DNA from: a virus
Lineage: Duplodnaviria > Heunggongvirae > Uroviricota > Caudoviricetes
IMG/VR virus record: IMGVR_UViG_3300047160_006104
Coordinates: 93,865-113,757 of that record
Length of the DNA stretch: 19,893 bases
Reading direction: 5' to 3' (one strand)
The notes beneath the pieces are model-generated. The model was given only the letters and a program-made list of their open reading frames with translations. It ran no database searches and had not been told where the DNA came from. Shown here piece after piece: positions 2-18,612 of this stretch (the stretch's first letter is position 1; each line of letters begins with the position of its first letter). The position numbers and the translations under genes were made by a program.

Positions 2-1054
2 GATCGGCGGCGTTATGCGAATGATGCTGGCGATACGTTCGGCCGGTATTGCGACGGCTGCGGAGAATCTTGGAATTGTGAGGACTGCAATGCCGGCCCA
101 TTTATCTGCCAGGATTGCGATTACGATCCAGACTGCGACCATGATAACGATGACGATTACGAGCCGGACTGCGACTGCTCCGATTGCCGCTATGCGCGTT
201 CTGGTGACGGTAGGGTCCGGAACTATTCATATCGGCCCGTGTTCATTCCGAAGGGCGGCACAGACCCGCTGAAAATGGGAATTGAATTAGAGATCGGCGG
301 TAGCCAAACCGAAATCGTTGACATAGTCGACGCTATCGCCCACGACATCCGCCGCGGAAACGTTAACGGTATCAGCAGTACGGATGACTCGAAGCATCTG
401 TATTGCAAAGACGACGGGTCAATTCAAGGTGTCGAGATTGTGTCGCATCCGATGACCCTCGGCTATGCACGACAATTCCCGTTCCGCCGATTGTTGGATG
501 AACTGCGTGATGACTGCTACGTCGAGGACGGATACGGTTTGCACGTCCATGTTTCTAGGGCAGCATTCCAATCGGCTAGTGGTAAGCATTCGCCTATCCA
601 AACGATGAAATGGTTACTGTTCATCCAGCGGAATAAGGACATGCTGACTGGATACGACAGGTTGGCGCGTAGGCCCGAATCGTCGTGGGCCAAGTTCGGC
701 AATCCGAAGAGAGGTGAGATAGCGCGTAAGGCTAAAAACGATCCGACATCGCGCCGCCAGCGATGCAACTGTGACGAGTACCGGATGCAGCATTACATGT
801 CGGATCATTGCGATGACCGCTATCAGGCAGTGAATTGCAATAACCCGGACACCTACGAATTGCGGTTCTTCAAGTCCACCCTATCCCCGCACGAGCTGTA
901 CGCGGCTATGGAATTTGTGGATGCTTCCGTGCGGTACTGCCGTACCGTGCCTACGTTCGACGTCCTAGCTGGCCGCGGGTTGTCGTGGCAGCGGTTCGCA
1001 TCGTGGGCACAGCGGCACAACTACAAGGCACTTGTCGCGGAAATATCGAAATAA
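2..1054 (+). CDS. Amidoligase (COOH-NH2 ligase type 2, Amidoligase_2-like) with Cys/Asp-rich N-terminal extension; 5'-partial
   Basis: Frame 2 is open from base 2 (DRRRYANDAGDTFGRYCDGCGESWNCEDC...CQDC...DCDCSDC...VRNYSYRPVF), so the GTG at 239 is not the true start. Motifs: NYSYRP, MGIELEI, KDDGSI..VEIVSHPM, GLHVHVSR, RYQAVN, TYELRFFKST. Confidence 0.85.
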   Translation, partial: DRRRYANDAGDTFGRYCDGCGESWNCEDCNAGPFICQDCDYDPDCDHDNDDDYEPDCDCSDCRYARSGDGRVRNYSYRPVFIPKGGTDPLKMGIELEIGGSQTEIVDIVDAIAHDIRRGNVNGISSTDDSKHLYCKDDGSIQGVEIVSHPMTLGYARQFPFRRLLDELRDDCYVEDGYGLHVHVSRAAFQSASGKHSPIQTMKWLLFIQRNKDMLTGYDRLARRPESSWAKFGNPKRGEIARKAKNDPTSRRQRCNCDEYRMQHYMSDHCDDRYQAVNCNNPDTYELRFFKSTLSPHELYAAMEFVDASVRYCRTVPTFDVLAGRGLSWQRFASWAQRHNYKALVAEISK

Positions 1055-1083: not shown

Positions 1084-1983
1084 ATGTGTCATTTAACGTA
1101 TATGCCTGACGGTATCGGCATAGATCAAGATGGACTATTCAATGCTGGATATTGCAATAGCGATGGGCATGGGTGGGCGATAGCCTCACCTATCGGATTG
1201 ATTCTGGGTAAGTCATTAGACCTAGCCGATGCGGTGGAACAGTTTGTGGATGCTCGGAAACGGTTCGACAATGCGGGCCCAGCGCTGTTTCATTCCCGCT
1301 GGGCCACGCATGGCAGCATCTGCATATCCAATTGTCATCCGTTCCTAGTCGGCGGTAGTCATCAGACGGTAGTTGCACACAATGGTGTGCTCCCTCGCAG
1401 TGCGCATCCGGGTGCGAGTGATGATCGGTCTGATACTCGGCTATTCGCGGACGAGATTCTGCCTAGACAGTATCGCCGTTTAGATCGGCGGAATGTGCGG
1501 CGTGCATTGACGGAATGGGTGGGTCGTGGGAATAAGCTCGTCATACTCACGACGGATCCGCGATACCGGCAGAATGTGTATCTGATTAATGAGTCCGCTG
1601 GGCAATGGGACAAAGCAGGTATCTGGCATTCGAATGGAGACCATAAGCCTTACTACTCGGCGAAAGCCTCGACGTGTGGGTACGGCAATGGGGATTGGAC
1701 ACCTAGCACACGTCACGTATTAGGTAAGCCATCGGATCCGACATGGACATACAGCACGGGTACGTTATGCGGATTCTGCGGGATGGGAGTCGTCGACCGT
1801 AACGGCTATTGCGATTACGGTTTTTGCCGTTCCTGCCAGGACTGCGCTGAGCACATTAAAGATTGCCTGTGCTACACCAATGGCGCTTATGACTATTTGA
1901 CTAGTCCCGATCCGGTATTGGGGTCGTGCGATGACATCGAATGGGTAAACGACATCGCTGTGGTGAGAGGTGAGAAGAAATGA
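1084..1983 (+). CDS. Class II (Ntn) glutamine amidotransferase with Cys-rich C-terminal tail
   Basis: ATG at 1084 gives Met-Cys (the N-terminal nucleophile). Motifs: NSDGHG, HSRWATHG, NCHPF, HNG, SDT. Tail contains CGFCG...CDYGFCRSCQDC...CLC. Confidence 0.9.
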   Translation: MCHLTYMPDGIGIDQDGLFNAGYCNSDGHGWAIASPIGLILGKSLDLADAVEQFVDARKRFDNAGPALFHSRWATHGSICISNCHPFLVGGSHQTVVAHNGVLPRSAHPGASDDRSDTRLFADEILPRQYRRLDRRNVRRALTEWVGRGNKLVILTTDPRYRQNVYLINESAGQWDKAGIWHSNGDHKPYYSAKASTCGYGNGDWTPSTRHVLGKPSDPTWTYSTGTLCGFCGMGVVDRNGYCDYGFCRSCQDCAEHIKDCLCYTNGAYDYLTSPDPVLGSCDDIEWVNDIAVVRGEKK

Positions 1984-2372
1984 CTCCGCTAGTTCGTAGG
2001 TTTGCGCATAGCCGCAATATCGGCTTCTATGTGTTCCAAGATGGGCAATGGCAGCGGGTATCCCAAGCGGAATGGAATGCACACCAGTGCGCCATAATGA
2101 AGAAAACAGAATGGAGTAACAATGTTGGTGACCGGGATGATCGCAGTAGCTGGAATCACGTTGGCATGTTCGGCCGTACTCATCGGAGTATACGTTATGC
2201 GGATTCTGCGGGATGGGAGTCGTCGACCGTAACGGCTACACACCAGTGCGCCATAATGAAGAAAACAGAATGGAGTAACAATGTTGATGACCGGGATGAT
2301 CGCAGTAGCTGGAATCACGTTGGCATGTTCGGCCGTACTCATCGGAGTACAGCGGATGACGAGACAGGGTGA
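1980..2372 (+). CDS. Hypothetical protein (130 aa) carrying the internal duplication
   Basis: ATGA overlap with the amidotransferase stop supports the start, but the 3' two-thirds overlaps two better-looking micropeptide ORFs in other frames. Confidence 0.4.
   Translation: MTPLVRRFAHSRNIGFYVFQDGQWQRVSQAEWNAHQCAIMKKTEWSNNVGDRDDRSSWNHVGMFGRTHRSIRYADSAGWESSTVTATHQCAIMKKTEWSNNVDDRDDRSSWNHVGMFGRTHRSTADDETG
2080..2349 (+). repeat. 111-bp direct repeat (2080-2190 and 2239-2349, one mismatch) flanking a 48-bp spacer identical to 1761-1808
   Basis: Base-by-base comparison. The only difference is G2128 vs A2287. Spacer tacgttatgc...aacggcta matches the amidotransferase gene exactly. Confidence 0.97.
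2122..2232 (+). CDS. Membrane micropeptide A (36 aa, MLVTGMIAVAGITLACSAVLIGVYVMRILRDGSRRP)
   Basis: GGAG 5 nt upstream of ATG; one hydrophobic helix followed by a basic tail. Below the ORF-track cutoff. Confidence 0.5.
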   Translation: MLVTGMIAVAGITLACSAVLIGVYVMRILRDGSRRP

Positions 2373-2382
2373 CGATAAGTAA
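2281..2382 (+). CDS. Membrane micropeptide B (33 aa, MLMTGMIAVAGITLACSAVLIGVQRMTRQGDDK)
   Basis: Same RBS and TM helix as peptide A; the stop lies just before the terminator. Confidence 0.6.
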   Translation: MLMTGMIAVAGITLACSAVLIGVQRMTRQGDDK

Positions 2383-2392
2383 ATAGCAGTCC

Positions 2393-2431
2393 AAGAAATG
2401 CCCGCCCTTGCCAAGGGCGGGCATTTCTTTT
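2393..2431 (+). terminator. Rho-independent terminator, possibly bidirectional
   Basis: Perfect 17-bp stem aagaaatgcccgccctt / aagggcgggcatttctt with a 3-nt loop and T-rich 3' end, directly after the operon. Confidence 0.9.
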
Positions 2432-2535
2432 GCTCCTGCTGGAATTTCCTCTGCTGGGGACCTTGGTCGGCCCGTGCTCCCTGGTGTGATAGGCCTACTT
2501 GCCGTCTGGTTTAGCCGTATGCGGACGTTCACCGT

Positions 2536-2738
2536 ATGGCGGGCACCACGACACCAGGAAGCCCTACCGTGTCGCCAGCGTCGACGCTAGGGCACCGTAT
2601 CGCGATATGGCCTGGTGTGCGGCACGCTGGATGCCTCATGCGGTGCCCTGAGACGGACTGAGACGTCCTGAGACAGGTCGCCTGGTGTCGCGGTGCCCGC
2701 CATGCCGTCTTGTGCGCTGGCGTGACAGCTAGGGCACC
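2536..2738. repeat. Nested dyad-symmetric site with five GGGCACC boxes
   Basis: 23-bp inverted repeat 2536-2558/2681-2703 (1 mismatch) and 9-bp inverted pair 2589-2597/2641-2649, both centred at about 2619. GGGCACC at 2541(+), 2590(+), 2642(-), 2692(-), 2732(+). Confidence 0.85.
2648..2674 (+). repeat. Three CTGAGAC heptamers with 10-bp period
   Basis: CTGAGAC at 2648, 2658 and 2668. Confidence 0.85.
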
Positions 2739-2785
2739 ATACGACGAAATCCGCATGTCACTGTCACGTCACGCCTCCCATAATG

Positions 2786-2925
2786 GCGAATCGGAATGGT
2801 GTCATTCGAGCCGCGGCATTGCGAATCGGAATGGTGCAATTCCGCCCTCACAGAATTGAATCAGAATGGCGTAATTCGACCCCAAAACAATGGCGAAAGA
2901 ATGGTTTCAATTAGACAACCAATGT
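2786..2925. repeat. Four degenerate 35-bp tandem units with palindromic core GAATGGYGNNATTC
   Basis: AATGG at 2795, 2830, 2865 and 2900 (exact 35-bp period). Units 1 and 2 share gcgaatcggaatggtg. GAAT...ATTC dyad in units 1-3. Confidence 0.8.
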
Positions 2926-3348
2926 AGCTGAAGGATGCCCCTGGCCAGCATTCCCGCAGGTCACAGCCCTACCACCACCCAGGTCGAATTAGCTCGACTA
3001 GGCAAACTGATAGCAACGCTATGCAACGCCGTGACCAGCGCAAACGCGCGTCGACCCCGAAACCAGCAACCGCAAAGTCCAGGCGCCTGGCGGGCGCCCT
3101 GGCGGAGCCGGTTCCCGAGGACCGAGGTTATCAGTTAGGTTGATATGGGGGTTGACCTGGGGTTTTGGTGGTTTGGCGGTGGTTTGGTGGTAACAGTGAT
3201 CACGGTCCGAGCTTGCTGTATTTGGTCATGTGGCGCTGCAGTGTGTGAGTGCGTTGTTGAGTGTGGTGTAGTCGGGATGTCGGTGCATATACTTTCGTTC
3301 ATGACACGCCGGAACAGCCGGGAGCAGACACAGATAGGGACACGACAC

Positions 3349-3537
3349 ATGGAGACAATCGACCGGCGGCTGCGGAGTCTGGACGAGACCCGGCAGCAGC
3401 TTCCCATCAGCATGTCCAAGCTGCACAGGTTGATGCGCGCGGGCGAACTGACCCGCGTGAAAATCGGTGCCCGAGCTTTCGTCACCCAGCAGAGCATCGA
3501 TGACTATGTGGACCGGCTGGAGGCCGCTGCGAAATGA
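3349..3537 (+). CDS. Excisionase-like HTH (HTH_17/MerR-type) DNA-binding protein
   Basis: AGGGA RBS; LRSLDETRQQLPISMSKLHRLMRAGELTRVKIGARAFV fits the xis-like winged-HTH pattern. Confidence 0.8.
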   Translation: METIDRRLRSLDETRQQLPISMSKLHRLMRAGELTRVKIGARAFVTQQSIDDYVDRLEAAAK

Positions 3538-3538
3538 A

Positions 3539-3566
3539 ACCGCCACCCGCAGGGACGGGCGGCGGT
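3539..3566 (+). terminator. GC-rich hairpin after the first HTH gene
   Basis: accgccacccg / cgggcggcggt stem with 1 mismatch and a 6-nt loop; no U-tract. Confidence 0.35.
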
Positions 3567-3689
3567 CACGAAGTTGCCGACTTCGCTTCCGAGGCACATA
3601 TTTGGGTTTCGACACGCCGACAGCATCCCAGCTATCCGCGCGAAAAACGGTAGACACACCGGCAAGCGATGAGAAAAGGAGCAAGAACC

Positions 3690-3905
3690 GTGGACACCAC
3701 CACACGCCGGATGCTGCTGAGCGTCCCTGAAGCCGCATACGCGCTGAACATCTCCCGCGCGATGCTCTACCGACTGTTGGCGCGCGGGGAGTTGGTGTCG
3801 GTGCGTATCGGCGCCCGCGCGTTCGTGGAGCAACAGGAACTGGATTCCTACGTGGCCCGGCGCCGCCAGGCGCGCTTGACCGAACTCGGCGCGCAGGGGT
3901 CGTGA
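3690..3905 (+). CDS. Second excisionase-like HTH (HTH_17) protein
   Basis: AAAGGAG RBS before GTG 3690; LLSVPEAAYALNISRAMLYRLLARGELVSVRIGARAFV. Confidence 0.85.
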   Translation: MDTTTRRMLLSVPEAAYALNISRAMLYRLLARGELVSVRIGARAFVEQQELDSYVARRRQARLTELGAQGS

Positions 3906-3945
3906 ACAAGAAAGGCCCGGCCGCGGCGGCGGGAGCGGCGGAACC

Positions 3946-4311
3946 CATTTAGACGCCGACGCCGTGACGGCGCTCCTGAAGGCGGCTGAAGGCTCGCGGT
4001 ATCACCCCGTGCTGCTGCTCATCGCGGCCACCGGACTACGCAGGGGTGAGGCGCTGGGGCTGGCGTGGTCGGCCGTCGACCTCGACGCCGGGCTGCTGCG
4101 GGTGGCCGCGACGCTGGCCCGCGTCGGTGGGCGGCTGGTCATCACGCCAGCCAAAACCGACCGCTCGCGGCGCGAGGTCCCGCTGCACCCGCAGGTGGCG
4201 GCGATGCTCCGCAAGCACCGCGTCGAGCAGAAAGCCGAGCGCCTGCGCGCAGGCAACAAGTGGACCGATACCGGGCTGGTGTTTTGCACCGCGCTCGGCA
4301 CGCCGGTCGAG
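3946..4311 (+). pseudogene. int: Tyrosine integrase fragment (first half of the catalytic domain only)
   Basis: HLDADAV..LL, TGLRRGEALGLAW..VDL (catalytic Arg), PAKTDRSRREVPL (catalytic Lys), W..TGLVFCT.LGTPVE. Similarity stops there: no HxxR/H/Y box and no N-terminal domain. Confidence 0.85.
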
Positions 4312-4416
4312 TCCACCGACCGATTCCCTGTTGTCGCGCTGCAACGCCATCATGTATTTGAGGTCTGTGTTGGTTGCTGGGCGGGCGGTGAATGTCGCTG
4401 CTTGCGTCATCATCAT
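4311..4416 (-). pseudogene. 5' remnant of a leftward gene, possibly a GNAT acetyltransferase; frame continues antisense into int to 4036
   Basis: ATGA overlap with the upstream gene's stop. MMMTQAATFTARPATNTDLKYMMALQRDNRESVGGL resembles a GNAT beta1-alpha1 start (RPAT..DL). Based on only about 35 aa. Confidence 0.35.
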
Positions 4417-4709
4417 GCGGCGCCTTTGGGGTAGGGGGGTTCGGTGATTGGTGCCGGGGCCGGTGCGGACATGTCGCGCCAGAGGACGTCTTTTTCGGGC
4501 ATCAGTTTTTCTCCGGCGTCTAGGCGGCGTTGCTGTTCGAGGGCGAAGGCGACCCAGGTTTTCAGGCCGCCGGGTTGGGGGATGAGTTCGCGGGTGTTGG
4601 CGTGGGCGATGGCGGTGTCTTGGGCTTTGCGTAGCTCGTGCCAGTTCATCCGGTCGACGGGCGGTCGGTAGGTGGTGAGGTGGGTGATGGTGGGGCGCTC
4701 CCAGTCCAT
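4413..4709 (-). CDS. Hypothetical protein (98 aa)
   Basis: AGGAG RBS before ATG; translationally coupled to the next gene. Confidence 0.75.
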   Translation of the reverse strand: MDWERPTITHLTTYRPPVDRMNWHELRKAQDTAIAHANTRELIPQPGGLKTWVAFALEQQRRLDAGEKLMPEKDVLWRDMSAPAPAPITEPPYPKGAA

Positions 4710-12372: not shown

Positions 12373-12527
12373 GTATCTGCCGCTGCGGGCATGACCGGCT
12401 GCTACACGGCTGGTTGGATAACTTCACCGGCCCGTGCCTGATCCTGAACATGACCGCCCCCTACCCGATCGGCTGCGGCTGCGTCGAATACAAAAAGCAG
12501 CCCACCGGCCCGAAAGTGAAACCATGA
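12369..12527 (+). CDS. Cys/His micro-protein (52 aa, MSICRCGHDRLLH...PC...GCGCVEY)
   Basis: ATGA overlaps at both ends (terS stop and terL start); absent from the ORF track. Confidence 0.65.
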   Translation: MSICRCGHDRLLHGWLDNFTGPCLILNMTAPYPIGCGCVEYKKQPTGPKVKP

Positions 12528-15268
12528 CCGCGGTAGTCGAGGCGCCCTCACCAGAAATCGGGGCCACCACCGCCCGCGTCTACACCCCACCACTAAAACG
12601 CAACTGCACCGGCCCGAAACCCGATCAGGACGGAAACGTGCTGGAATGCGGCTGCGGCTGCGGCCTGAACCCGCAAACCTCGTGGGGCTTCGACTGCAAC
12701 CACTTCACGAAAAATGTGCTGCGCTACAACCTGCTGCCGTGGCAAGAGTGGCTGAATATCCACGCCCTGGAGAAAAGCGAAGACGGCGGTTTCCGGTTTA
12801 AAATCGTCGTCGTTCTGGTGGCTCGACAAAACGGTAAGACCAGTTGGTTAAAGCAGTTAGGTTTGTGGCGCCTGTTCGTCTCTAAATACGGAACCGCCAA
12901 CGCCGCCGCCCCCGGCGCCCGGCTGGCGGTGATCGCCGCCCAGAACCTGGAATACGCCGAACAAGTCCTCAAAGACGTCGTCGACACCATCCGCGACCAC
13001 CCCAGACTGTCCCGAGAGCTGATTAACCATCGGGTCTGCCTGGACGTGTCGACTCCGCTGCTGACCGCCAACAGGGGTTGGACAACGATGGGTGATGCCC
13101 GCGCCGGTGACGTGCTGTTTCACCCAGACGGCGGCACAACCCGTATCCGCTACGTGAATCCTGTGTATGACAATCACCTCTGTTACCGGGTCAGCACCAG
13201 CGACGGGCGCAGCGTCGTGTGCGATGACCGGCATTTGTGGACGGTTCAGGATCGGCGCCGTTTCACGCGCGGCGAAGACGACCGATTCGTGTGGACCTGG
13301 GAAACGATCAGCACCGTCGAGATGCTGCGCCGCGGGCTTCGTCGGCTCGGAGCATCACCCCGGGCCAATGCCTTCCGGCTACCGGATCAGCAATGCCTGG
13401 ACGGGAAGAACGTTGACCTGCCGATAGACCCGTACACCTTGGGCTACTGGCTCGGAGACGGCGACAAACACGGATCACGCATCACCGTCGCCGATCGCGA
13501 TGCGGCGGAGTTGATCAGCCTGATGGCGGCGCGCAATACCACCGTCCAGAAAGCGCGTCGTGAGGGTAACTGGTGGCGTATCTGGTTCGGCACCCCAGCG
13601 GGGGGTCTGTGGACGCAGTTACGCAGCCTCGGGGTGGCAGATGACCGCCGCTACCTTACCGGCGCGCACAAGCACATCCCCGACATCTACCTACACGCCG
13701 GGCCTGAGCAGCGGGAGGAGCTGCTGGCCGGCTTACTGGACAGCGACGGCAGCGTCTCCACCAAGGGCCGGGTGGTGTTCACCAACACGTCCGCGGAACT
13801 CGCCGACGCGGTGATGTACCTCACCCGATCGCTCGGCTTTTCGCCGCGCCACCACATCAAGCGCCACATCGTGAGCGGTAAAGACTACGGCGACATCCAC
13901 CGGGTCATGTTCACACCGCACCGCCAGGTGTTCCGGCTGTCCAGGAAGACCGAACGGATCTCGACCGGCCAGCGCCCCCCGGGTATCTATGTGAAATCGA
14001 TCGAGCCGGTGGAGACACGCGCGGTGCGCTGCTTCAAGGTGGATCGCGACGACGGCCTGTTTTTGGCTGGCCGAGACCTCATCCCCACCCACAATACCAA
14101 TGGCCGGCACCGCGCGATCCTGACCAACCGTCGCTATTGGCGGGCGGTCACCGCTTCTCGTAAAGGCGGCCGAAGCCTCTCGGTGGATTTAGCGATGCTC
14201 GACGAGTTACGTGAGCACACCACCACCGACGCGTGGGACGCGATCGCCCCGGCGACCACGGTGCGGAAGTTTTCGCAGATCGTCTGCACTTCCAACGCCG
14301 GAGATCAGCGCTCCGAGGTGCTGCGCAGCCTGCGTGACGCCGCCACCCGGCGGATCACCACCGGCGAAACCACTGAAACTAGAACCGGATTATTCGAATG
14401 GTCGGTGCCCACCGACTACAATCCTCGCGACGAGCAGCATTGGCATCTCGCTAATCCCGCGTTGGGGTACCTCAACGACTTCTGCCTCTCAGACCTGCGA
14501 GCTATGTTCGAAGCCGCGCAATACCGCAACATGCCCGGGTTTCAAACCGAATATTTATGCCAGTGGGTTGATGCGCTGCAGCCGGGCATTATCCCGGCTG
14601 AGCATTGGGGTGAAACGGTCGATTCCACCACCAGGAGGGCAGAGCAATCCCCGGTTTACGCGGCAGTGGACGTCAACTACGACCGCACCCGCTCATTTAT
14701 CGCCATCGCGGCCCGACGCGACGACGGGGATCTGCATATCGAGATCGTGGCGGCGGCGCGGGGAACGGACTGGGTAGTGGACTGGCTGTCCGAGCGGAAA
14801 ACGAAATTCAAAGCGGTGACCGTGCAGCAGACCGGGGCACCGGCCAGCGGAATGATCCCTGACTTGCAAAAAGCTGGACTCGAGATTATGGAGTGGGGGC
14901 CGGGCGCTGAGGTCGCGGCGGGCTGCGCCCGTTTCTATGACCTGATCTGCCAACACAGCCTGCGGCACCGGCCCGCCCCGGTGTTGGACCGCGCCGCCGC
15001 GTCGGGTATTTCCCGGCGGGTGGTCGACGGCTGGGTGTTCTCGCGGCGCGACTCACCGGTCGACGTCGCCCCACTGTTCGCTTGCGCCGCCGCCGTCTGG
15101 GCGGAACACCGCGGCCCCGCCCCGGCACCAGAAATTCATCCCTGGCCCGACGAAGACACCATCACCCGATGGGAAGCCGACGCCGCCGAAAAATACGGCG
15201 CCTCACCCGGCGCCCTGTCTGCGCGGTTCAACGACATCGAAGGAACATCGTGGTGGATGAGCACCTAG
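12524..15268 (+). CDS. terL: Terminase large subunit precursor (914 aa; about 561 aa after intein removal)
   Basis: Start at ATG 12524 (ATGA overlap). LLPWQEWL, Walker A VARQNGKTS, Walker B LAMLDELRE, TSNAG, nuclease YAAVDV, VDVAPLFA. Confidence 0.95.
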   Translation: MTAVVEAPSPEIGATTARVYTPPLKRNCTGPKPDQDGNVLECGCGCGLNPQTSWGFDCNHFTKNVLRYNLLPWQEWLNIHALEKSEDGGFRFKIVVVLVARQNGKTSWLKQLGLWRLFVSKYGTANAAAPGARLAVIAAQNLEYAEQVLKDVVDTIRDHPRLSRELINHRVCLDVSTPLLTANRGWTTMGDARAGDVLFHPDGGTTRIRYVNPVYDNHLCYRVSTSDGRSVVCDDRHLWTVQDRRRFTRGEDDRFVWTWETISTVEMLRRGLRRLGASPRANAFRLPDQQCLDGKNVDLPIDPYTLGYWLGDGDKHGSRITVADRDAAELISLMAARNTTVQKARREGNWWRIWFGTPAGGLWTQLRSLGVADDRRYLTGAHKHIPDIYLHAGPEQREELLAGLLDSDGSVSTKGRVVFTNTSAELADAVMYLTRSLGFSPRHHIKRHIVSGKDYGDIHRVMFTPHRQVFRLSRKTERISTGQRPPGIYVKSIEPVETRAVRCFKVDRDDGLFLAGRDLIPTHNTNGRHRAILTNRRYWRAVTASRKGGRSLSVDLAMLDELREHTTTDAWDAIAPATTVRKFSQIVCTSNAGDQRSEVLRSLRDAATRRITTGETTETRTGLFEWSVPTDYNPRDEQHWHLANPALGYLNDFCLSDLRAMFEAAQYRNMPGFQTEYLCQWVDALQPGIIPAEHWGETVDSTTRRAEQSPVYAAVDVNYDRTRSFIAIAARRDDGDLHIEIVAAARGTDWVVDWLSERKTKFKAVTVQQTGAPASGMIPDLQKAGLEIMEWGPGAEVAAGCARFYDLICQHSLRHRPAPVLDRAAASGISRRVVDGWVFSRRDSPVDVAPLFACAAAVWAEHRGPAPAPEIHPWPDEDTITRWEADAAEKYGASPGALSARFNDIEGTSWWMST
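13037..14095 (+). mobile_element. Intein in TerL (353 aa) with LAGLIDADG homing endonuclease
   Basis: CLDVSTPLLT...GW.TMGD (block A), DDRHLW (B), LGYWLGDG and LLAGLLDSDG (C/E), VRCFKVD...LFLAG..LIPTHN/T (F/G); exteins join as NHRV/TNGRH. Confidence 0.95.
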
Positions 15269-15818: not shown

Positions 15819-15991
15819 ACCGCGACGCCCGCGAATGCTTAAGGACCGCCGCGGAAATACTCACCGCGGCCACCGGCTGCCAACCGTCGCTCGCCGCGCA
15901 GATCGTGGAACTCATCGCGCTGGGCACGATCCGCTGGAACGCGGAAGAAACCCCCGAACCGCGCATTCCCGTAGTGATGGAGGACCCGTGA
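15815..15991 (+). CDS. Hypothetical protein (58 aa)
   Basis: GTGA overlaps at both ends. Confidence 0.6.
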   Translation: MNRDARECLRTAAEILTAATGCQPSLAAQIVELIALGTIRWNAEETPEPRIPVVMEDP

Positions 15992-18612
15992 GCATCCTAG
16001 CCAGGTTGGTGTCATCCGACGCGCGGATGGAACGCCGCACACTGCAGAGCAGCGCATTTGTCCCGCCCCCGCAAGTCGGCGTCATCGACGACTTCGTCGG
16101 TGTCCACCGGGCCATGGCCCATATGAGTGTGTATGCGTGTGTGCGTTTGCTGGCGGACACGATAGCGTCGCTGCCGTGGAAAGCGTATCGCCGCGACTCC
16201 AACGGTGTGCCGAAAGAGATAAACCCGCAGCCTGCGCTGCTGAGTGAGCCGTATCCCGGATTCGACGTATTCCAGTGGAAATGGATGGTTGTGGCGTCGA
16301 TGGCGCTGCGCGGAAATTCCTACCACTACATCACCAGCCGCGACAAAAACGGGATTTATCCGACCGCGCTGCTCCCTTTGCATCCCGACATTGTGTTCCT
16401 TGAACGGCGCCCCGACATTCTGATGTGGTTTGAACCGATCTACCGGATCATGGGGGAGCCGATCCCGGCCCAGGACATGATCCATATGCGGCGGTTCACC
16501 ATGCCCGGCGAACCGTGGGGATTATCACCGATTCGTCAAGCCGCGGTCGCGATCGGCATGGGCCTAGCGGCCGAAGAATACGGATACCGCTACTTCAAAG
16601 AATCCGCCAACCCGTCCGGCACCCTATCCACCGACCAAAACCTCGATGAGGGCGCCATCACCCGACTACAAAACAACTGGATCTCCAGCCAAGGCGGGCG
16701 GCGACTACCGGCGATCCTGACCAACGGGATGAAATGGGAGACACTGTCCATCAGCCCCGACGAGTCCCAGTTTCTGACGACGCGGCAGTTTCAGCGCTCC
16801 GAAATCTGCATCATGTACGGAGTGCCCCCGATCCTCATCGGAGACACTAAAGAAACAACGGCGTGGGGATGTTTGCCCAGTTCAGCCCTGGTGTTTAGTA
16901 GCTCTAACGGGCCTGTTCCGATTAGTGAAATCAATGTCGGTGACGAGGTTTGGTCATTTGATGGCAGCAAAATGGTTACAGCGAAAGTAACCGGCTGGAA
17001 GATGACTGGGTATAAACCGCTTCTGACAATCAAGACGCAAGGTCGGGAACTTCAAGTCACTGAAAACCACCGCATCCCGGTACGCCGATATTTCGGGAGG
17101 GCCGCCGGCCGCATCGGCGGTAATCCGCATCGTAAGAGCACATGCGGCTGGGAGACGATCGAGATAAGTGCTGGTGAGATTGGAAAAGGCGACTACCTCA
17201 TCGTGCCCCACGGCATGGGAGACGGCGATCAGCACACTACGCCCAACGGTCTGGATGTCAGTGTGGGAATGATGGAATTCCTCGGTCTCTACTTGGGCGA
17301 CGGGAACCGGGACCGGGGTTCTCGCGCGGACAAGGCCAGAGGGTGGGTGGGTCGGCGAGTCGAGATCGCTCATGGCCGCGACGAAGACCATATGGCTCAT
17401 TACCGCCAGCTCATCGAGCGCGAGTTCGGGGTCGTCCCCTATACCGATGATCGTGGCACCCGCACCAGATTCAGTTCGGTTAAGGCGGTCGAGTTGATCG
17501 ACGCGGGTTTCACCGGCACTGCCGCCACCAAACGTGTACCCGGCTGGGTGTTCCGATTGGCCCCGGAGCTGCAGTTGGCGCTGCTGCGCGGCTATCTCGA
17601 CGCCGACGGTTCTGTTCAACGCGGGGCCATCATCTTCTCGTCGGTCAACAAGTTACTGCTGGAAGACGTGCGTCATCTGTGTATCCAAACCGGTGTTCCG
17701 GTGGGCAAGGTCAAACTGGGCCGCAAAGGCGGCCTGATGATGATCCGTGGGAAGACCTACCGCAGCAGAGACAAGTGGGAGTTGTCGCTGTCCTCTCTTG
17801 CGCACAACGTCCGGATCGGCAGTAACAGCGTCCATAAGGCGAGTCGCCTAACCACGTTGGCCAGCAACTCCCGCAAAGGTGGCCTGCGCGAGCGGTCGCG
17901 GCGGCTGCGGTATGACGATGACTGGACCGGCGACTCCTACGGTGCCCGCAAGTCGATCGGACGCCCACCGCAGGGAACTGTCTATCACAAGGTGGTGTCG
18001 GTTGAGCGCGGCACCGTTGATGTGCCGGTGTACGACATTGAGGTGGACGGGCTGGCGCACTATGTCGCTGACGGCATCGTCGTCCACAACACCGGTGTCT
18101 CGCAGATCAATTTGGCGGCGGTGACGTATACGTTTAGGCCGTGGACGGCGTGTATTGAGTCGGTGATTTCGGGGTGTTTGCCGCGGGGGCAGTTTGTGCG
18201 GTTCGATTATTCGGCGTTGTTGCGTGGTGATTTTGCTGGGCATTTGGCTGCTTTGAAGGATGGTGTGCAGGGGTCGGTGTTCATGCCTAATGAGGCCCGC
18301 GCCGAGTTTGAGATGGACCCTGTTAAGGGCGGCGACAAACTGTATATACCGAATACGTTTGTGCCGGTTGGGTTTCCGCCGACCGCCGCGACACCGCCGG
18401 CGGGTAATGATCAGCCTGGTCATTTGCCGACGCCGCCGATCGGTGGTGGGGAGCACACCCCGGCCCCTGCGGGCGGCAAAACCGGCGGCGGCGGGAATGG
18501 TAGCCGCGCGGCGGATCCGTTTGACTGGCATGAAGCTGAACTGCGTCGTGTCTCCCTTTTGCAACGGGAAACCTCTGAGACTCTAAGAGACGGCCACGAG
18601 GAGATGACATGA
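15988..18612 (+). CDS. HK97-family portal protein precursor (874 aa; about 467 aa after intein removal)
   Basis: GGAGG RBS before GTG 15988. VYACVRLLADTIASLP, LRGNSY, GLSPI, ANPSGTL, SPDESQFLTTRQFQRSEIC..YGVPP..IG, WG/TG, F.PNEARA. Confidence 0.95.
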   Translation: MSILARLVSSDARMERRTLQSSAFVPPPQVGVIDDFVGVHRAMAHMSVYACVRLLADTIASLPWKAYRRDSNGVPKEINPQPALLSEPYPGFDVFQWKWMVVASMALRGNSYHYITSRDKNGIYPTALLPLHPDIVFLERRPDILMWFEPIYRIMGEPIPAQDMIHMRRFTMPGEPWGLSPIRQAAVAIGMGLAAEEYGYRYFKESANPSGTLSTDQNLDEGAITRLQNNWISSQGGRRLPAILTNGMKWETLSISPDESQFLTTRQFQRSEICIMYGVPPILIGDTKETTAWGCLPSSALVFSSSNGPVPISEINVGDEVWSFDGSKMVTAKVTGWKMTGYKPLLTIKTQGRELQVTENHRIPVRRYFGRAAGRIGGNPHRKSTCGWETIEISAGEIGKGDYLIVPHGMGDGDQHTTPNGLDVSVGMMEFLGLYLGDGNRDRGSRADKARGWVGRRVEIAHGRDEDHMAHYRQLIEREFGVVPYTDDRGTRTRFSSVKAVELIDAGFTGTAATKRVPGWVFRLAPELQLALLRGYLDADGSVQRGAIIFSSVNKLLLEDVRHLCIQTGVPVGKVKLGRKGGLMMIRGKTYRSRDKWELSLSSLAHNVRIGSNSVHKASRLTTLASNSRKGGLRERSRRLRYDDDWTGDSYGARKSIGRPPQGTVYHKVVSVERGTVDVPVYDIEVDGLAHYVADGIVVHNTGVSQINLAAVTYTFRPWTACIESVISGCLPRGQFVRFDYSALLRGDFAGHLAALKDGVQGSVFMPNEARAEFEMDPVKGGDKLYIPNTFVPVGFPPTAATPPAGNDQPGHLPTPPIGGGEHTPAPAGGKTGGGGNGSRAADPFDWHEAELRRVSLLQRETSETLRDGHEEMT
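16870..18090 (+). mobile_element. Intein in portal (407 aa), class 1, with LAGLIDADG endonuclease
   Basis: CLPSSALV (A), VTENH (B), FLGLYLGDG and LLRGYLDADG, VYDIEV...YVADGIVVHN/T (F/G); exteins join as ETTAWG/TGVSQ. Confidence 0.95.

Follow-up and report, generated by a model that had tools for sequence, protein, structure and literature searches.

A recent 159-bp tandem duplication with a copied 48-bp filler in a Ku-encoding soil actinophage, most likely formed by end joining

Structure of the duplicated locus

We analyzed the last 19.9 kb (19,893 nucleotides, called the window below and numbered from its first base) of the 113.7-kb IMG/VR soil virus record IMGVR_UViG_3300047160_006104, which has a GC content of about 62%. 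The window begins inside a cassette that comprises an amidoligase-family gene, a gene for a class-II glutamine amidotransferase (GATase)-like protein and several small open reading frames (ORFs). The cassette forms an island of about 3.5 kb with about 52% GC (50–55%), extending from about −1100 to 2400 of the window (about 92,700–96,300 of the record). Its 3′ end contains two 111-bp direct copies of a sequence that we call R, with R1 at 2080–2190 and R2 at 2239–2349 (both on the plus strand), on either side of a 48-bp segment that we call S (2191–2238, plus strand) and that is itself copied from the GATase gene. We interpret this arrangement as a young, one-off structural mutation, namely an in-frame tandem duplication of 159 bp with a 48-bp filler, and we consider Ku-dependent end joining to be its likeliest source (we put the probability of this reading at roughly 70%).

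The repeat finder aligns R1 and R2 head to tail over 111 nucleotides with 99% identity, and the sole difference between them is a G at 2127 in R1 versus an A at 2286 in R2. S is identical at 48 of 48 positions to 1761–1808 (plus strand), which lies about 430 bp upstream, in direct orientation, in the part of the GATase gene that codes for its Cys knuckle. The edges of R and S are sharp and their boundaries exact, since the neighboring bases are unlike wherever either segment occurs. Together, R and S add 111 + 48 = 159 nucleotides, or 53 codons. By self-BLAST we found no further copies of R or S in the whole 113,757-bp record, and matches of such length and exactness cannot be due to chance. 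Both the pair of repeats with one mismatch and the exact upstream match of the segment between them had been reported in a preliminary description of this DNA, made from the sequence alone, and the repeat finder confirms them. Since the duplication, R has accumulated 1 change in 111 nucleotides and S has accumulated 0 in 48; the copies are almost identical, so the event is recent. In the S source, a similarity of 80% between 1763–1782 and 11–30 (repeat family D4) was dropped, since by our own estimate a region this large would show it by chance.

Sequence of the junctions

Microhomology is retained at neither junction. The R1|S junction (2188–2193) reads GTA|TAC, and both of its parental sites are GTAC: the right edge of R divides this tetranucleotide as GTA|C (2347–2350, where R2 meets the downstream sequence) and in the S source, the left edge splits it as G|TAC (1760–1763). 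The product carries the central TA twice. A doubled TA would fit two ends with filled-in 2-nucleotide 5′-TA overhangs that were ligated blunt, but we spotted this signature post hoc and so regard it as suggestive only. In Monte Carlo sampling of the island sequence, the chance of a GTA|TAC geometry is 0.5% per junction for a 2-nucleotide overhang and 2.6% for any overhang of 1–4 nucleotides. The preliminary description had seen no clear microhomology at the junctions, which is right in that none has been kept, but it needs refining because the R1|S junction lies within a GTAC that the two parents share, with its TA doubled.

The arrangement in soil metagenomes

We placed Logan contigs (contigs, not raw reads) from four soil-metagenome runs on positions 1400–3600 of the window. 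Run X8 (2025) yielded a 241-nucleotide contig that corresponds to 2166–2406 with zero differences, and thus contains in one piece the end of R, S, the full R2 (as the A variant) and the unique sequence beyond it. In run X4 (2018), one contig contains S plus the first 30 nucleotides of R2, another comes from unique upstream sequence and enters R by 30 nucleotides, and a separate unitig consists of exactly R (2080–2190), at a depth of 3.8 versus 2.1–2.5 in the flanking sequence (about 1.5–1.8x). This is the expected topology for a repeat whose two copies, each with its own left and right neighbors, have collapsed into one. A contig from run X2 (2019) starts at 1871, passes through R1 and ends 3 nucleotides into S. 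By index search, all the sampled words from the stretch that is specific to the junctions (2163–2266) are present in both X13 (2019) and X8, and 63% of them are present in X4. No contig omitting the 159 bp was seen among the soil-run contigs, whose coverage is low and patchy.

Run X2 also carries a variant of the sequence, C>A at 1986, just past the stop codon of the GATase gene, which changes Pro3 to Thr in the 130-codon ORF described below and shows that strain variants of the phage exist in the soil runs.

Small ORFs in the duplicated DNA

Three small ORFs, all on the plus strand, overlap the duplication. The longest (1980–2372) encodes 130 amino acids and runs in frame through R1, S and R2. 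It has a coupled start, its ATG overlapping the TGA of the GATase gene (ATGA), and a good ribosome-binding site, GAGG, 9 nucleotides upstream. The other two are a 36-codon ORF at 2122–2232 (peptide A), which combines a predicted transmembrane (TM) helix from R1 with a basic tail from S, and a 33-codon ORF at 2281–2382 (peptide B), which has the TM helix and a charged tail. Their maximum Kyte-Doolittle values (19-residue window for peptide A) are 2.32 and 2.24, respectively. A GGAG motif (2113–2116 for peptide A) precedes each ATG by 5 nucleotides, and the two helices are alike except for V3 in one peptide and M3 in the other. The preliminary description had stated that each repeat holds a ribosome-binding site, an ATG and the same TM helix, followed by different tails, and the ORFs and tails are as it quoted them.

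Peptide B is presumably the product of the original micropeptide gene. The stop codon of the upstream copy falls in the filler, so the predicted peptide A gains a new basic tail, 13 residues long, from S read in a frame other than that of the GATase gene. It is indeed the case, as had been noted from the sequence, that S is read differently by each of the ORFs that contain it–at an offset of +1 in the GATase gene, 0 in peptide A and +2 in the 130-codon ORF. The last of these gains an internal repeat of 53 residues from the duplication.

Across the whole record, a Shine-Dalgarno (SD) site and a TM helix occur together in only 3 of 732 short ORFs, and two of these three are peptides A and B. This combination is rare enough in the genome to make a micropeptide gene plausible, as opposed to a random ORF, and we lean somewhat towards the predicted micropeptide gene being real. 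The 130-codon ORF competes with the peptide ORFs for the same DNA. In a single-sequence AlphaFold2 (AF2) model of its product, the predicted local distance difference test (pLDDT) score reaches 61–80, a moderate confidence, at residues 1–39 alone, which are modeled as three strands and a helix; it is below 50 throughout residues 40–130, including all the residues that derive from R and S. We think that the N-terminal 40 residues of this ORF are probably real. Codon log-odds favor the 130-codon frame, with the score being confounded by amino-acid composition, and a test restricted to synonymous codons is flat between the overlapping frames.

Searches for homologs of the small ORFs gave nothing. 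For the 130-amino acid protein we found none in a word search of 5.8 billion proteins, a HMMER search of 1.84 billion proteins or a tblastn search of phage genomes. Neither peptide A nor peptide B had a homolog in phage records (tblastn), the ESM Atlas or PHROGs. Comparison of the small ORFs with Pfam and PHROGs returned sub-threshold noise alone, and the ESM Atlas gave no usable match, the recognition scores, 1446 and 2037, falling short of the 2300 mark.

The donor gene and related phages

The gene that donated the filler (1084–1983, plus strand) encodes a protein that starts with Met-Cys, has a Cys-rich C-terminal part and matches phrog_25883 (E = 7e-80). It has 267 homologs, of which the best has 60% identity; among those with E-values from 1e-99 to 1e-66, several are named as class II glutamine amidotransferases. 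The Pfam domain GATase_4 scores 17.5 bits on it, below the 23-bit cutoff. We assign it to the class-II (N-terminal Cys) GATases on the basis of the Cys right after the initiator Met together with this family homology. Upstream of it is the first enzyme gene of the cassette, the amidoligase-family gene (2–1054, plus strand; its 5′ end lies before the window), which hits Pfam Amidoligase_2 at 27.3 bits, above the cutoff, and phrog_22302 at E = 3e-62, and which is paired with the GATase gene in relatives too.

The same pair, in the same order and also at the right end of the genome, is present in cluster S mycobacteriophages such as Marvin and Blackbeetle (gp113–116). There, too, the GATase is 299 amino acids long, its Cys-rich C-terminal motif is conserved, and its stop codon lies in a 4-nucleotide overlap with a small gene. 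However, the small genes downstream are unrelated in sequence to those of our phage, and neither R nor the duplication is present in the relatives examined. The only matches that megablast and blastn gave among 50,697 phage records were to the cluster S GATase gene, at 66–67%. Scans of IMG/VR with peptide patterns and with exact R found nothing; neither did a scan of JGI metagenomes for the exact end of R, and a scan there with GATase peptides found relatives at 53% identity only. Downstream of the nearest GATase homologs (≤60% identity), the DNA is unrelated. Overall, R, S in its context and the small ORFs have no relative in IMG/VR, JGI contigs, INPHARED or the protein sets searched.

Origin of the duplication

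The rearranged cassette belongs to an actinophage of about 114 kb that encodes Ku and is related to cluster J. Its capsid protease (52% identity) and Ku (35%) have their nearest relatives in the cluster J mycobacteriophages, which have genomes of about 110 kb. The Ku family model (PF02735) scores 113 bits at 90,664–91,179 of the record (minus strand), inside an intact 300-aa ORF about 4.8 kb upstream of the repeats; the match lies about 2.7–3.2 kb before the start of the window. Because the phage itself encodes Ku, the protein would be present whenever its genome replicates. Neither an ATP-dependent ligase domain nor a LigD polymerase domain was found in the phage. We propose that the DNA was broken with a 111-nucleotide 5′ stagger, or that breaks to the left and right of R occurred in two sister copies, and that both ends were then filled in, which would leave R on each of them. 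A 48-bp piece of nearby phage DNA would have been captured or copied into the gap, and the ends would have been joined without microhomology by phage Ku and host LigD. As a by-product, the small ORF of R, with its SD site, ATG and TM helix, would now be present twice. A duplication accompanied by capture was among the readings that the preliminary description had offered, and the exact repeats, the copied filler and the microhomology-free joins all support it.

When paired nicks leave 5′ overhangs, the whole overhang can be duplicated with no microhomology involved (PMC5227551), and there is ample documentation of templated insertions where ends have been joined (PMC2943611). The scars in those two studies resemble ours in the head-to-tail duplication, in the insert copied in direct orientation from sequence close by and in the microhomology-free joins, and one junction here looks like a filled-in short 5′ overhang. 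They differ in being mostly eukaryotic and made after engineered breaks, whereas ours is a natural phage allele for which the enzymes are deduced, and the 111-nucleotide stagger and 48-nucleotide filler are near the top of the size range. As for the enzymes, the mycobacteriophages Omega and Corndog circularize by means of host LigD, according to a passage in PMC12848934 that cites Pitcher et al. 2006. Like these phages as portrayed there, ours has Ku without a ligase, and its Ku is about 35% identical to that of Omega-type cluster J phages and has a similar position in the right arm. The difference is that non-homologous end joining (NHEJ) has a known role in those phages, as far as that passage goes, in the joining of cos ends, and what we propose from sequence alone is an internal rearrangement.

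Several points weigh against this proposal. A stagger of 111 nucleotides is long, and LigD would need to come from the host, the source of the genome being a soil-metagenome contig. The fill-in signature appears at only one of the two junctions, was found post hoc and has a probability of about 1–5% by chance; the S|R2 junction is plainly blunt and shows no such signature. GTAC is only mildly depleted genome-wide (ratio 0.67, similar to CTAG), so no GTAC-specific nuclease is implied; we also considered restriction-site avoidance at GTAC and dropped it on account of the same figure. The ancestral form that lacks the 159 bp was not seen in the contigs, and so the polarity of the event and its single-step nature are things that we infer. 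Lastly, every run is a soil metagenome, and a single campaign of sampling may lie behind them; they attest the junctions across several libraries and not across independent populations.

Among the alternatives to end joining, the main rival is replicative template switching (copy-choice, serial slippage, or a process similar to fork stalling and template switching (FoSTeS) or microhomology-mediated break-induced replication (MMBIR)), which we regard as unlikely. A polymerase that had copied R would have gone back 430 bp to 1761, copied 48 nucleotides and then moved on to the start of R. The filler is direct, near and from the same strand, as is typical of such switches, and both parents read GTAC at the first switch point. 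But priming on GTA or GTAC predicts that the shared bases will be present in one copy, and TA is found twice at the junction; at the second junction not one base is shared, whichever the direction of replication, and joins free of microhomology are atypical of this mechanism. A different proposal, which accepts the same mutational origin, is that the duplication has been kept by selection for a useful second micropeptide with a basic tail or for a longer 130-codon product. It has some appeal: the length of the added unit can be divided by 3, the SD site, ATG and TM helix are all kept in peptide A, whose tail is positively charged, few ORFs of the genome combine an SD site with a TM helix, and several runs show the duplicated form and no other. 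On the other hand, divisibility by 3 has a 1-in-3 chance and concerns just the last 8 codons of the 130-codon ORF, no homologs of the small ORFs were found, the codon tests and the structural model do not decide which of the overlapping frames is translated, and so young an event may owe its persistence to drift. We find selection still more doubtful than template switching. The stronger version of this idea–that a single NHEJ scar created a new gene variant, in the form of a micropeptide duplicate with a functional tail drawn from enzyme DNA in another frame–receives slightly less credence again. If it were true, phage-borne Ku would help to generate new small genes, besides its role in circularization.

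Two further readings do away with the mutation as such or give it a function. The preliminary description had itself raised the alternative that no phage molecule has the order R-S-R and that it is a chimera of assembly or amplification. The record is a metagenome assembly, an R of 111 bp and an S of 48 bp can confuse short-read graphs, and our placement used Logan contigs alone and no raw reads. Yet both R|S and S|R are crossed by k-mers and contigs in three or more runs from different years and studies, and the X8 contig by itself carries the end of R, S, R2 in full and the unique sequence that comes after it. Junction k-mers are not something that a de Bruijn assembler makes up, a chimera formed in one library would not reappear in others, and the mismatch between R1 and R2 allows the copies to be phased by 150-nucleotide reads. 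With junction-spanning contigs in several separate runs, a chimera is largely excluded, and we consider it very improbable. We attach practically no weight to the last alternative, a functional repeat-spacer device, be it a mini-array resembling clustered regularly interspaced short palindromic repeats (CRISPR), an RNA that is processed and homologous to the operon it comes from, or a programmed means of varying the tails of the micropeptides. The resemblance to CRISPR arrays and mini-arrays lies in the repeat-spacer-repeat layout alone, with a spacer taken from the neighboring gene, and in the fact that spacer integration duplicates a repeat. Repeats of CRISPR arrays measure about 23–50 bp, do not code for protein and usually contain partial palindromes, and their spacers, typically several, stem from foreign targets. 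The repeat here is 3–4 times too long, contains an SD site, an ATG and an ORF, is unstructured (it folds no better than shuffled sequence, z = +1.1) and has no leader; the single spacer matches the phage's own GATase gene, and the genome has no other copy. The unit is thus not a member of the CRISPR arrays, and no cas-like gene is present among the annotated ORFs of the window, in which no dedicated cas search was made. The RNA-element version suggested in the preliminary description fares no better. S is direct and not inverted, so it cannot base-pair with the sense mRNA of the operon. Rfam gave no match above threshold, its sub-threshold match to Thr_leader being the hairpin of the intrinsic bidirectional terminator that closes the cassette (2393–2429). 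This hairpin, found by a terminator scan, has a perfect 18-bp stem (inverted repeat I3, its arms 100% complementary) with a run of T residues after it, and it dominates the predicted fold of 2060–2440. Relatives with varied spacers, which the preliminary description had named as the mark of a repeat-spacer system, did not turn up: nothing carrying R was found elsewhere in the collections searched, although these hold no close relative, so that this comparison is only partly applicable. On present data the arrangement, two repeats with one self-derived spacer, is a one-off rearrangement, and a programmed or recurrent process is not indicated.

As a product of end joining, the locus would be a clean natural case of a duplication with filler, both datable and resolved at its junctions, in a phage that carries Ku. 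Mutations of this kind are known; there are good descriptions of their scars from eukaryotes with engineered breaks, but few reports of them from phage genomes. The locus also illustrates how a single repair accident can yield a paralogous micropeptide ORF whose tail comes from enzyme sequence read out of frame, and it may be a snapshot of the birth of a small gene. If such scars prove to be commoner in phages that encode Ku, this would bear on how NHEJ shapes the mosaicism of phage genomes.

Genomic setting of the cassette

With its low GC content, the cassette looks like a horizontally acquired module. It is followed by about 900 bp without a convincing gene (2430–3350), a non-coding stretch rich in symmetry and repeats. 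This stretch contains a pair of 28-nucleotide inverted repeats (2531–2558 and 2681–2708), three CTGAGAC units with 10-bp spacing near 2650–2675, and three 25-nucleotide units at an exact spacing of 35 bp (2783–2877). From these features, 2430–3350 may hold a cos or termini region together with an array of operators or iterons. Next come two genes for HTH_17 (excisionase-like) proteins at 3349–3537 and 3669–3905, and after them, within 3349–4434, a 156-codon ORF with a partial match to the catalytic domain of tyrosine integrases that looks, from this match, like an integrase remnant.

Farther along, a 944-codon ORF (12434–15268) upstream of the portal gene has LAGLIDADG and homing-endonuclease domains and an apparent intein; it is probably the large terminase gene, although no terminase family scored. 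The portal gene (15835–18612) likewise has an apparent intein, with LAGLIDADG, intein-splicing and Hint domains, and a portal intein is less usual. A prohead protease gene is also found, with the portal gene, beyond the non-coding stretch. The succession of the non-coding stretch and then the HTH_17, integrase-fragment, terminase-like, portal and protease genes therefore places the cassette at the far right of the gene map, adjoining the likely genome termini.

Elsewhere in the record, positions 33,600–36,700 are densely occupied by diverged tandem and dispersed repeats (741 nucleotides at 83%, 266 nucleotides at 88%, and an exact 91-nucleotide pair), and this region is probably a repetitive structural gene. 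An exact 51-nucleotide inverted repeat links positions 55,698–55,748 and 73,389–73,439 of the record.

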